Of a stretch of DNA of 64,000 nt, positions 28,893-32,448 are shown one piece after another. The translations under genes were made by a program, and so were the position numbers. How positions within the stretch are numbered: the first letter of the stretch is position 1; each line of letters starts with the position of its first letter. The notes under the pieces were generated by a model. It worked only from the letters and a program-made list of their open reading frames with translations, did no database searches and had not been told where the DNA came from. Source of the DNA: Mariniblastus sp. (GTDB lineage: Bacteria; Planctomycetota; Planctomycetia; Pirellulales; Pirellulaceae); NCBI GenBank assembly GCA_031409295.1, contig JANNWZ010000154.1, forward strand, positions 19 through 64,018, read 5' to 3'.

Positions 28893-28915
28893 GACTTGAC
28901 CATCCTTGTCAAGTC
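28893..28915. promoter_or_regulatory. Perfect 8-bp inverted repeat GACTTGAC-N7-GTCAAGTC upstream of csrA; candidate TF operator
   Basis: Read directly from the sequence. It contains a TTGAC (-35-like) half-site. Confidence 0.45.
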
Positions 28916-29061
28916 ATTCCTTGAAAGTTATTCTCGCAAACAACAGCGGTCTTCTCGTTGCGATTTCCGACTCGGATCCAACCCCGCGTGGTTGTTTATT
29001 CAGTGTGGCTATCGCTCACCAAGGAAGAAGTAAGGGAATATTTTCTAAAAAGGAATTAACG

Positions 29062-29301
29062 ATGTTGGTGCTTAGTCGCAAAACTGGCGAACGCATTTGG
29101 ATTGGCGAAAACATTTCGATAACGGTTGTTCGAATCACCGGAGGGGGTGTTCGGATTGGCATCGAGGCGCCTGTTGAAATGGCGGTTGTTCGCGAAGAAT
29201 TGAAATTGCGAATGTCCGAAACTGATGGATCACACCTGGGTGGACAAGATCTTAATCAATCCGTCGAGCATCCGCAAACGACTCGATCCCCCCAAGCTTG
29301 A
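29062..29301 (+). CDS. csrA: Carbon storage regulator CsrA
   Basis: MLVLSRKTGERIWIGENISITVVRITGGGVRIGIEAPVEMAVVREEL, with AAGGA SD upstream. Confidence 0.93.
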   Translation: MLVLSRKTGERIWIGENISITVVRITGGGVRIGIEAPVEMAVVREELKLRMSETDGSHLGGQDLNQSVEHPQTTRSPQA

Positions 29302-30249
29302 TTACTTACGATTCCAATCGTAGGATTCCAGTTCGGCGGTTTGCACGTTGCTGCCGATGGCTTTACCGGATCGCACATCTATCTTTCCTTGGGCCAAAGT
29401 ATTGAGCGGTCCATATTTGGCGACAAATTCTTCCAGTGCGGCCAATTTCCTGTTCGCCGATGCTTCCTGATGCGTTTCCTGTCCGGGTGGATTGCCCCAA
29501 ATGACTTGGGTTCCATTTGCCGGCCATAACTCGAAGGGCGAATCGGGATCTATTTGTCGATCGGGCCGACGAAAGGTCACGATGCGATACAAACCGAGTT
29601 CTTGCCAGCGCGATCCAAGGACCTCGCTGATTTCTGCGCAACCTTTGATTCGTTCATCGGGCCATTCTGTCCAGGTTTCGAGTTTGGTGAATCGAATCGG
29701 ATCAAAAACTGAAAATCTCAACAACGATTCTGCCGCTACCAATTTGGCAGGCAAAATAATCGCTTGTCGATCCACCGGCATGAGTTGGCCGTCCTCGTCG
29801 GCGGGCCAATCAGGAATCGTGAGTTTATTGAGTTCAATCATGCCAATCGGTTCCCGGTAAACCAATTCAATCGACAGTCCCGCCTTTGATTTTTCGACTC
29901 TGCGGACCTGTTCGACCCAGCCCACGGTTTTGAATGTTTCGACCGTCCGCGCTACCAATGCAGTATCGAGCAGGGAAGCCGTTTGATCGCTGGTAACATG
30001 GTCGAGCACCAACTTTTTAAGATCACCTTCACTCCATAGCGGCGGGTCATTCAATTGAATTTTGTCAACGGTCAATCGGTAGTCTTCTCGATCGACAATT
30101 GCTTCCTGATGTCGGTTCCAAAGATGAACGGCAACCCCGATCGTAAAACTTGACGCCACCACGAACAGTGTGGCTGGGTGAAGAAGGATACCGCGAACGG
30201 AAAGTCCCGAGAGTAAACGTGTAAGCAAATCTTCCTTGCGTTTCGCCAT
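29302..30249 (-). CDS. Bitopic membrane protein, FtsQ/DivIB-like (divergent)
   Basis: Single N-terminal TM followed by a periplasmic domain. GWVEQVRRVEKSKAGLSIELVYREP resembles the POTRA end of FtsQ. It lies directly downstream of the murB homolog. Confidence 0.55.
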   Translation of the reverse strand: MAKRKEDLLTRLLSGLSVRGILLHPATLFVVASSFTIGVAVHLWNRHQEAIVDREDYRLTVDKIQLNDPPLWSEGDLKKLVLDHVTSDQTASLLDTALVARTVETFKTVGWVEQVRRVEKSKAGLSIELVYREPIGMIELNKLTIPDWPADEDGQLMPVDRQAIILPAKLVAAESLLRFSVFDPIRFTKLETWTEWPDERIKGCAEISEVLGSRWQELGLYRIVTFRRPDRQIDPDSPFELWPANGTQVIWGNPPGQETHQEASANRKLAALEEFVAKYGPLNTLAQGKIDVRSGKAIGSNVQTAELESYDWNRK

Positions 30250-30389
30250 GATCCATCTCAAAAAACGAGTCGTTTCGACAGGAAGTGATTCCTGATTGAA
30301 TGTTTTTCGTATTTTTTGACAGAAAATCTTGAGGCGAAATCGGAGTTAGTCTGGAACGGTAAATTCTTTCGGGAACTGGCAGCGATTGC

Positions 30390-31268
30390 TCACCAAATAC
30401 AGATCGCGTTTTCCAGCTGAACTTGCAAGCGATCACCTACCTGTGTCCGAACCAACTCCATTAATTGAATCACCTCATCGCTAGTAGCACCGGGGTGAGC
30501 GACAAAGAAATTCGAGTTTTTGTCTGAAATTTCAACTTTTCCTACCCTGGTCCCCTTCAGTCCGGCTCGGTCGATCAATTCTGCGGCAGTCTCGCCTCCG
30601 TGGTCCTTGAAAATGTAGGTCGAATTTTCTTCCGACGGTGGTTGGGTAGCGCGGCGAACAATCCACTGTTTTTGCATTTGCCGGGTGAGCAAAGCTGAGT
30701 CTTCCGGTTCGAATTGAAACTTGGCACTGAGAATCACCAATTCTGTGATACTGCTTTGACGATAGGAAAACGATAACGAATGTTTGTCGCGCATGCTACG
30801 ATTTCCGGCGCGGTTCAACAATTCAACGGATTGCACCCACGAGCCAATATCGATCCCGTGGGCGCCAGTGTTGTTATGTAAGGCGCCGCCAATGGTGCCT
30901 GGAATACCAACCAGTTGCTCGGGTCCCGATAATCCAGCGCGCACGGCCGCGGCGACGAAATGTGAGATTTGTGTTCCGCCACCCGCGGTCAGGCAATTGT
31001 TTTCAATCTCAATCGTGCAAAAAGCAGGAGCACACAACTGCACAACCAAGCCGGCAACTCCAGTCCCGCGGACCAACAAGTTGGAACCATTACCGAGCAT
31101 ACGAATTGGCAGATCGTGGTCGGAGAATCGTTTCACCAATGCAATCAATTCCTCGATTGATGTTGGTTCCGCATAAAATTCCGCGACACCACCGACATTT
31201 AAGCGGGTGAATCGAGATAACGACTCGTTTTCGCGAACGATGTGTTCAAAACCGGAATTTAAACTCAC
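30390..31268 (-). CDS. murB: UDP-N-acetylmuramate dehydrogenase (MurB) homolog, active site divergent
   Basis: TRLNVGGVAEFYAEP, LGNGSNLLV, GIPGTIGGAL, FSYRQS, LKGTRVGKVEIS. GTG start at 31268 inferred. Confidence 0.85.
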   Translation of the reverse strand: MSLNSGFEHIVRENESLSRFTRLNVGGVAEFYAEPTSIEELIALVKRFSDHDLPIRMLGNGSNLLVRGTGVAGLVVQLCAPAFCTIEIENNCLTAGGGTQISHFVAAAVRAGLSGPEQLVGIPGTIGGALHNNTGAHGIDIGSWVQSVELLNRAGNRSMRDKHSLSFSYRQSSITELVILSAKFQFEPEDSALLTRQMQKQWIVRRATQPPSEENSTYIFKDHGGETAAELIDRAGLKGTRVGKVEISDKNSNFFVAHPGATSDEVIQLMELVRTQVGDRLQVQLENAICIW

Positions 31269-31410
31269 AAATTCATCCTTTGTAAACAGGGAACACGTTT
31301 CCTCAATAATACCAATTTTTGCAATTTCCCGAACCCGATCGATTTGGACTGAGGAAAAACAGGGAAATTGCCTTGGTCGCACTATTCAATCGATCAACTT
31401 AGGCCATGGT

Positions 31411-32172
31411 TTACCAATAGCGTTCTAATACGATCTGCCCCGGCGACTTGCTGCGATGAAGTGTCATGTTTCGTTTTCCCAACAATTGTTCCATTGAGTC
31501 AAGCATGGCTGGATTGCCACAAAGCAGGACCGATGATGTTTCCGGTCTCATTTCGTCGCCCACCAGGTGTTCCAAAGATCCGTTTTCGATCAAGTCCGGA
31601 ATGCGACCAGTCAGGCAATTTGGCGACTGATCACGCGTTAGAGTTTGGATCAATTTGAATCGTCCCGGGAATCGTTGTTCTAGATCCAACAATTCTTCCG
31701 TATAGGCGAGGTCGGTAATTTTGCGGACGCCATGGACAACAATAATCCGCTGAAATTTTTCCCAGGCATAATCCGTTCGCAGCATCGCGATGTAGGGAGC
31801 CAGCCCAGTCCCTGTCGCGAACAGCCAGGCTAATCGCGCGGCCGGCGTTTTTTGCAAAGTAAAACTCCCCGCTGCCCGTTGTGAGACATGGATCGGTTGA
31901 CCTTCCTGAAGTTCCCATAATTTGGGAGTCAGTTCACCATCGTCCACCACGACAATAAAAAACTCCAGTTCGTCGCCGTGAGGAGAGGCCACAGAATAGG
32001 GGCGATTGATTAGTTTTGGTTCCGATTCAACTGAATCCTGTTGGTGAACCATTAATTGCAAGAATTGTCCTGGTAAGAACGGCTCAATATCGGGAACTCG
32101 TATTCGAATCGTGAATAGTCCAGGCGACCAATTCCGTCGATTGGTAATGACTCCTTCGCACCATTTGGGCAT
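31411..32172 (-). CDS. fpr: Ferredoxin--NADP+ reductase (bacterial subclass)
   Basis: PGQFLQL, RPYSVAS, GELTPKL, ATGTGLAPY, HGVR, LLCGNPAML and C-terminal ERYW. Confidence 0.92.
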   Translation of the reverse strand: MPKWCEGVITNRRNWSPGLFTIRIRVPDIEPFLPGQFLQLMVHQQDSVESEPKLINRPYSVASPHGDELEFFIVVVDDGELTPKLWELQEGQPIHVSQRAAGSFTLQKTPAARLAWLFATGTGLAPYIAMLRTDYAWEKFQRIIVVHGVRKITDLAYTEELLDLEQRFPGRFKLIQTLTRDQSPNCLTGRIPDLIENGSLEHLVGDEMRPETSSVLLCGNPAMLDSMEQLLGKRNMTLHRSKSPGQIVLERYW

Positions 32173-32448
32173 CGTAAATTCAAACCATTTTTTTAGGGAA
32201 GGGAGCCCGGCGGCAAAAACCAAATGTGGGCGGAGCGCAGCGGGTGAAAGCAATTCCGGCTGCCCGCATGGCTTTATCATCCGTGATTTATCCCCCCGAA
32301 TCAATCAGTGAACAGCGAGTATTTGTTTATCGGCGAAGGCGCATACCAGTTGGGGAAAATCCCGTTTTTGCTTATAACCTTCAACTGACGTTTTTTGACA
32401 TTCGGATTTCTACGCCGCAGGAATGGGTGCACGACCACCGCTAATAAC

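Follow-up and report, generated by a model that had tools for sequence, protein, structure and literature searches.

MurB reduces enolpyruvyl-UDP-N-acetylglucosamine (EP-UDP-GlcNAc), and in the Escherichia coli enzyme Ser229, the equivalent of Ser238 in Staphylococcus aureus MurB, acts in proton transfer (PMC9658463). According to an account published in iScience in 2025 (PMC12283558), murA, C, D, F, G, J and ftsW have disappeared from Pirellulales, Gemmatales and Isosphaerales, and conservation across the whole Planctomycetes-Verrucomicrobia-Chlamydiae (PVC) superphylum is limited, within the division and cell wall (dcw) cluster, to murB, mraW and ftsK. We analyzed a 64,000-nucleotide stretch of a Mariniblastus sp. 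genome (GCA_031409295.1, contig JANNWZ010000154.1; hereafter the window), which holds a murB homolog directly followed by an ftsQ-like gene (Table 1). With a probability of roughly 0.75, we read the murB product as a MurB-derived flavoprotein, a remnant of the dcw cluster that no longer reduces EP-UDP-GlcNAc and has been kept for another function. The retention of murB is already published; the loss of its catalytic site is the new element, as far as the literature searched goes. Within the literature library searched, we found no report of catalytic-residue loss in a retained planctomycete murB, and the consulted sections of PMC10632474 and PMC12283558 contain no statement that we found on residue loss tracking pathway loss or on linkage to ftsQ.

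The murB homolog carries the Pfam domains FAD_binding_4 and MurB_C (E-values 6e-20 and 3.5e-21). It scores 174.3 bits against TIGR00179 (murB; cut-off 144.5) and falls narrowly under the cut-off of NF010480 (251.5 against 259 bits). An AlphaFold2 model built with 80 homologs reached a predicted local distance difference test (pLDDT) score of 95.6 and matched S. aureus MurB (1HSK) with a template-modeling (TM) score of 0.91 and a root-mean-square deviation of 2.2 Å. To map the active site, we aligned the protein with HMMER to four type II MurBs of solved structure; no gaps fall near the motifs. A first-pass annotation of this DNA had found the proton-donor Ser/Cys replaced by Tyr, the catalytic Glu by Ala and the His of H-A-N-F by Asn, with the motifs binding flavin adenine dinucleotide (FAD) and the Arg of Y-R-x-S kept. 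All of these readings held in the alignments, where Tyr218 lies opposite Ser238, Ala288 opposite Glu308 and Asn251 opposite the His of K-H-A-G-F, and realignment placed no Ser or Cys at the donor position. Three shifted alternatives were considered, namely Ser216 and Thr217, which immediately precede Tyr218, and Glu286, located two positions ahead of Ala288; none of them is conserved in the surrounding clade, so realignment gives the active site no rescue.

The gene shows the marks of selection on its protein. By pairwise Nei-Gojobori (NG86) estimates, the ratio of nonsynonymous to synonymous divergence (dN/dS) was 0.054 (dS 0.34) against the nearest relative, which is 96% identical, and within the clade sharing Tyr and Ala it was 0.139 in another close pair and 0.04–0.06 in pairs at dS 1.3–1.8. 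Among 120 close homologs (57–100% identity), the donor site is Tyr in 103 and Phe in 14 (117/120 aromatic), and the Glu site is Ala in 95, Ser in 13 and Gly in 7. A new Asp222 is present in 119/120, and the catalytic Arg is kept in 97 and varies in 23. These substitutions are common to the whole clade and are therefore not chance. The murB homolog is thus a selected coding gene whose old pocket has been remodeled rather than preserved. With dN/dS values of 0.04–0.14 and intact open reading frames (ORFs), the gene is not decaying, in agreement with the earlier proposal of a retained gene. Being an enzyme homolog without key catalytic residues and under purifying selection, the product has the features of a pseudoenzyme; judged from its sequence, it is probably inactive and probably still binds FAD.

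We then asked what the genome offers such an enzyme. It is a metagenome-assembled genome (MAG) of a Mariniblastus-like member of the Pirellulaceae, 94% complete and in 241 contigs. A search for a second intact murB and for other mur genes returned no second murB-family match, leaving the gene in the window as the sole one, and as Mur ligases only one MurE-like protein and one weak domain match (44 bits). MurA, MurC/D/F, MraY, MurG, a SEDS (shape, elongation, division and sporulation) protein, a penicillin-binding protein (PBP) transpeptidase, a Pfam-type FtsQ and FtsZ were not found in this 94%-complete genome; the search for MraY gave a WecA-like transferase (GT4) only. A MurA candidate of 47.8 bits on contig C174 proved to be AroA instead (TIGR01356, 287.5 bits). 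Relatives with complete genomes likewise lack the pathway genes. The catalytic residues are thus lost, as first described, in a genome where neither MurA nor the rest of a canonical lipid II gene set was found. Since no MurA was found, no EP-UDP-GlcNAc would be made.

We compared the residues with the pathway across 81 genomes of the order, split by hidden Markov model (HMM) searches of draft genomes. MurA and MraY occurred in the same 39 genomes, and both were lacking in the other 42 (this genome and 41 more), hereafter pathway-less. Seven families, and even one genus (g165), contain both kinds of genome, so pathway loss is recent and repeated rather than order-wide; the order-wide loss given in summaries from cultured strains is contradicted by the 39/81 genomes with MurA and MraY. 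MurB was present in 79/81 genomes, and all 79 genes were aligned. All were full-length ORFs, 40 of them from pathway-less genomes. Every one of the 39 MurBs from pathway-bearing genomes reads S-A-G-C-x-F-K-N-P, H-A-(N/G)-F and L-E-x-E, with Cys, His and Glu intact. Among the 40 pathway-less MurBs, the three residues occur together in 13 and at least one is replaced in 27; the catalytic Glu is kept in 19. Their donor position can be Tyr, Met, Leu, Gln, Arg, Ile, Trp or Thr, and the Glu position Gln, Ala, Leu, Asp, Gly or Ser. Because the replacements vary in this way from lineage to lineage, relaxation fits better than a new shared catalytic site.

A MurB gene tree built without the trait columns requires no fewer than 14 changes in the Cys column and 13 in the Glu column, and pathway state must have changed at least 12 times. 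All Cys and Glu changes fall on pathway-less branches, because every pathway-bearing genome keeps both residues. Pathway-less branches make up 68% of the tree length, and a rough branch-length test gave P ~0.004 for Cys and ~0.006 for Glu. In seven within-family contrasts, the triad was lost in the pathway-less member only in four and the reverse was seen in none. Evolution was about twice as fast overall on pathway-less branches. Pathway-bearing MurBs have 87 columns with at least 97% conservation; in pathway-less genomes the most relaxed of these clustered at 213–218, 222, 251–252 and 288, in addition to 102 and 131, while conservation remained at 95–100% in the Q-x-x-W-I helix, at Arg170 and Ser172 and in the glycine-rich FAD motifs.

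Gene order changes along with the pathway. The FtsQ-like family is single-copy in 79/81 genomes of the order, the same 79 that have MurB. In pathway-less genomes the ftsQ-like gene directly follows the murB-like gene in 38/40, with 71–385 nucleotides between the HMM matches. In pathway-bearing genomes with both genes on one contig, a gene of 1.05–1.7 kb stands between them in 28/32, and it was Ddl in all five cases scanned. In the window the gap is about 140 nucleotides, so no ddl lies between the two genes. This arrangement and the fold matches below sustain the earlier reading of an FtsQ-like next gene without ddl. The view of the pair as a dcw remnant likewise gains from the relatives, which have murB-ddl-ftsQ where the pathway is present and a murB-like then an ftsQ-like gene where it is not. 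By its gene order, then, the pair reads as murB-ddl-ftsQ minus ddl.

The identity of the second gene rests on structure. Its product had no Pfam or NCBIfam match (including PF08478 and PF03799), 30 homologs were likewise without a Pfam domain, and two orthologs in relatives gave faint matches to POTRA_1 and FtsQ_DivIB_C (E 0.02–0.09). An AlphaFold2 model (pLDDT 84) predicts one transmembrane helix (residues 29–55) followed by two alpha/beta domains, a POTRA and a beta domain. The best eight Foldseek matches were all FtsQ (E 4e-7 to 3e-4), and VIA-align placed the model on FtsQ chains with Z 9.5–10.1 across the transmembrane helix, POTRA and beta domains, above the Z of about 7 for BamA, where only the POTRA aligned. 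From this predicted fold and from synteny, we accept the product as a divergent FtsQ. The cytoplasmic or juxtamembrane stretch at residues 17–35, with R-G-I-L-L-H-P-A-T-L-F, is among the best-conserved parts of this fast-evolving family. Such conservation is unusual for FtsQ tails and makes the segment a candidate partner-binding site.

The pattern extends beyond the order. A phylum-wide sample of 150 genomes, nearly all with MurA and MurB, gave no contrast because the draw had left out the order of Mariniblastus, and it was replaced by the order sample and a class sample. In the latter (91 genomes), full-length MurB was present in 91/91 and MurA in 30/91, leaving 61 MurA-less. Among 65 further MurB genes fetched from the class, a canonical copy was found in 15/15 MurA-bearing genomes and an intact triad in 0/49 MurA-less ones. 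Family f103 has Gln at the Glu position, with an ftsQ-like gene directly after in 17/18. Family f104, which belongs to another order of the class and is MurA-less (loci L202–L226), has Arg at the Cys position and His at the catalytic Arg, with an ftsQ-like gene directly after in at least 12/19. The f104 protein is conserved, at about 298 residues, and its FAD motifs are altered, with G-G-G-F-N for G-x-G-S-N and G-I-R-G for G-I-P-G; flavin binding may have been lost there. Genome G234 (family f105; loci L178 and L194) has a canonical murB, divergently oriented beside murA, and a separate copy in which Tyr occupies the donor position and Gln that of the Glu. We considered G234 as a wall-making genome with two MurBs, and no MraY was found in it, so it documents the coexistence of the two copies and not a full pathway. 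Kolteria novifilia is also reported to have murB1 and murB2 (PMC12288469).

These observations suggest a history in several steps. The gene would be the vertically inherited murB from the murB-ddl-ftsQ end of the ancestral dcw cluster. In the Mariniblastus-like Pirellulaceae, in which the other precursor and polymer synthesis genes were not found, the substrate would no longer be made, and selection on EP-UDP-GlcNAc reduction would have lapsed once it was gone. The general acid Cys or Ser could then have become Tyr, the catalytic Glu Ala and the His of H-A-N-F Asn, along with changes at neighboring substrate-pocket positions. Strong purifying selection has meanwhile acted on the protein, which keeps its fold, its length, its FAD motifs and its place immediately upstream of the divergent ftsQ. 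Such a history implies that the MurB-like protein probably has a second function, which canonical MurB presumably has as well. A role in envelope growth or division is plausible from the pairing with the ftsQ-like gene and from the MurE-like gene upstream in many relatives. More speculatively, the conserved adjacency hints that the second function acts with the FtsQ-like protein in a division or envelope growth independent of FtsZ and peptidoglycan, a suggestion we hold only tentatively; the structural or regulatory role in FtsZ-less division that the first-pass annotation put forward would have the same adjacency as its basis. A still bolder and somewhat less likely extension is that a peptidoglycan-independent function of MurB is the real reason for its retention across the PVC superphylum. 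The MurB-like, FtsQ-like and, in many lineages, MurE-like proteins would then form a module for FtsZ-free division or envelope growth, in which the MurB-like protein may be an FAD/NADPH-linked sensor or scaffold on the juxtamembrane segment of the FtsQ-like protein.

Several points weigh against a MurB-derived protein that has abandoned its chemistry for another role. Tyr can be the general acid in other flavin ene-reductases, and residual or altered catalysis could persist. The replacements at Cys and Glu vary by lineage and are silent on the nature of the retained function, and a strict independent-pairs test using well-supported branches only gave four pairs, was not significant and was underpowered. 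The absence of pathway genes rests on a draft MAG of 94% completeness and 241 contigs, and the altered FAD motifs in f104 mean that a function shared by the whole class may be independent of FAD. In P. limnophila, neither canonical murB nor ftsQ is essential according to Rivas-Marin et al. 2023 (PMC10632474), who describe murB as 'very conserved in Planctomycetia'.

Both enzymatic alternatives are weakened because the replacing residues differ from lineage to lineage. It is unlikely that the protein is a neofunctionalized enzyme rather than a pseudoenzyme, a still-active MurB-type reductase that uses Tyr218 as general acid and works on EP-UDP-GlcNAc or on a related substrate of enolpyruvyl or unsaturated type. 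In old yellow enzyme the proton comes from a Tyr, and the FAD motifs, Arg170, Ser172, Phe220 and Lys221 are retained. The fixation in the clade of an aromatic residue at 218 and of the new Asp222 (119/120) indicates that the old pocket is still constrained, and a gene for an NADPH-type ferredoxin reductase lies upstream in a subclade. Yet with no MurA found, EP-UDP-GlcNAc would not be available as a substrate. Among the 120 close homologs, 14 have Phe in place of Tyr and 23 vary at the catalytic Arg; the donor site of other pathway-less lineages is occupied by Met, Arg, Leu, Gln, Trp or Ile; and G234, which does have murA, carries a canonical murB next to that gene as well as the Tyr-type copy. 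Less probable again is a peptidoglycan-like polymer made by a non-canonical route, with the MurB-like, MurE-like and Ddl-like proteins as its enzymes. Reports of a peptidoglycan-like substance exist for Rhodopirellula baltica and Gemmata (cited in PMC5814848), a MurE-like protein occurs in 30/42 pathway-less genomes, sometimes encoded directly upstream of the murB-like gene, and the genome has two divergent Ddl-like genes. Such a route would have to do without MurA, MurC/D/F, MraY, MurG, a SEDS protein and a PBP, none of which was found; the lineage-dependent variation of the former MurB catalytic residues is a misfit with a conserved enzymatic step, and the MurE-like scores decay in pathway-less genomes.

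The remaining alternative, a functionless relic nearing loss and kept open by chance or through polar effects on the ftsQ-like gene, is very improbable. It would account for the roughly twofold faster evolution on pathway-less branches, for the lost catalytic residues and for the non-essentiality of canonical murB in P. limnophila (PMC10632474), but a dN/dS of 0.04–0.14 contradicts decay. Full-length ORFs occur in 79/81 genomes of the order, 40 of them MurA-less, and in 91/91 of the class, 61 of them MurA-less; the length is fixed at about 292 residues, the FAD motifs are conserved and the AlphaFold2 model is confident. A MurB-derived flavoprotein retained for a function other than EP-UDP-GlcNAc reduction therefore remains the reading we favor.

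This reading bears on a question that the consulted sections of PMC10632474 and PMC12283558 leave unexplained, namely why murB is retained. The replacements described here arose many times independently and are confined to genomes where searches for MurA and MraY came up empty. They turn a puzzling pattern of presence and absence into a testable claim, a moonlighting role of MurB. The murB-like/ftsQ-like pair, or the triple with the MurE-like gene, offers an entry point to the FtsZ-free, wall-independent division of budding planctomycetes. The pipeline label 'UDP-N-acetylmuramate dehydrogenase' for such genes, in turn, misleads pathway reconstruction.

The features of the locus are collected in Table 1. 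Three genes share the minus strand, encoding the ferredoxin-NADP reductase-like protein, the MurB homolog and the FtsQ-like protein, with valS divergent upstream. The murB frame is open from 31382 (ORF 30390..31382, minus strand); the actual start is the GTG at 31268, because more than 100 homologs share the 292-residue length and start there. The ferredoxin-NADP reductase-like protein scores 209.6 bits against NF008178, under the cut-off of that model, and its arrangement with the murB-like gene is present in about 14 close loci of the Mariniblastus clade and absent from more distant ones. On the other side, the last position of the csrA-like ORF is 29301 and that of the FtsQ-like gene 29302, leaving zero spacer, a pairing kept in many close relatives. 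A scan for promoters and terminators found sites no more often than in shuffled sequence, and the intergenic gaps contained none.

Table 1. Coordinates of the murB-like/ftsQ-like locus, as positions in the window
Feature	Coordinates	Strand	Remarks
csrA-like ORF	28906-29301	+	CsrA domain at residues 53-103 of a 131-residue frame; convergent with the ftsQ-like gene
FtsQ-like gene, divergent	29302..30249	-	315 residues from ATG; predicted short cytoplasmic tail, one transmembrane helix, POTRA domain, beta domain
Residues 17-35 of the FtsQ-like protein	30150-30249	-	cytoplasmic/juxtamembrane segment
MurB-like gene	30390..31268	-	292 residues; GTG start; type II MurB fold; catalytic residues replaced
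Ala288 codon	30405..30407	-	position of the catalytic Glu of S. aureus MurB (C-terminal L-E-x-E motif)
Asn251 codon	30516..30518	-	replaces the His of the H-A-N-F motif
Tyr218 codon	30615..30617	-	position of the proton-donor Ser of S. aureus 1HSK (C-G-S-V-F); Cys in planctomycete MurBs
Arg170 codon	30759..30761	-	catalytic Arg of Y-R-x-S; retained
G-I-P-G-T-I-G-G-A	30882..30908	-	FAD-domain motif; retained
G-N-G-S-N	31080..31094	-	FAD (pyrophosphate) binding motif; retained
Ferredoxin-NADP reductase-like gene	31411..32172 (also delimited as 31411-32304)	-	directly upstream of the MurB-like gene; neighbor in a subclade only

Elsewhere in the genome, the MurE-like ligase is encoded at L017:2407-3942 on contig C168 (TIGR01085, 304 bits). 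MurE-like proteins are present in 30/42 pathway-less genomes of the order, where their scores decay. In several relatives (for example G171, G220, G195, G177, G216 and G224) the gene lies directly upstream of the murB-like gene, forming a murE-like/murB-like/ftsQ-like remnant. Contig C200 carries two tandem divergent Ddl-like ATP-grasp genes (L016:13963-17975), well under the Ddl cut-offs, which adjoin genes for a KamA-family lysine 2,3-aminomutase and for a GNAT acetyltransferase; this locus may encode a beta-amino-acid peptide pathway and not one for the wall.

Set beside canonical type II MurB (S. aureus 1HSK, Listeria monocytogenes 3TX1; TIGR00179), the homolog has the same FAD_binding_4 and MurB_C architecture at about 30–33% identity, and shares the FAD motifs, the Arg of Y-R-x-S and the place before (ddl-)ftsQ. 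It differs in having Tyr, Ala and Asn for Ser or Cys, Glu and His, in about 20 further changes at columns that wall-making relatives conserve at 97% or more, and in belonging to a genome without a detected MurA to supply the substrate or MurC to use the product. A laboratory parallel is E. coli MurB S229A (structure 1UXY), a single mutant without the general-acid hydroxyl. S229A MurB folds and binds substrate, and its second half-reaction was reportedly severely impaired in the work of Benson et al. from 1997. Unlike that mutant, the natural protein is without the Glu and the His too, and its donor site is filled by a bulky aromatic residue. The FtsQ-like protein shares with FtsQ/DivIB (E. coli 2VH1, 6H9O and 8HHF) the bitopic topology, the POTRA and beta fold and the distal dcw position. 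It departs from E. coli FtsQ/DivIB in its identity of about 15%, in having no Pfam or NCBIfam match, in evolving faster than the MurB-like protein and in its conserved juxtamembrane segment. As for the partners of FtsQ/DivIB, FtsW and FtsI were not found in this genome, and FtsB and FtsL were outside the search. Compared with the published accounts of murB retention, to the extent of the sections consulted (PMC10632474, PMC12283558), the gene in the window is an example of what they describe, whereas our sample, rich in metagenomes, still shows MurA and MraY in about half of the order.

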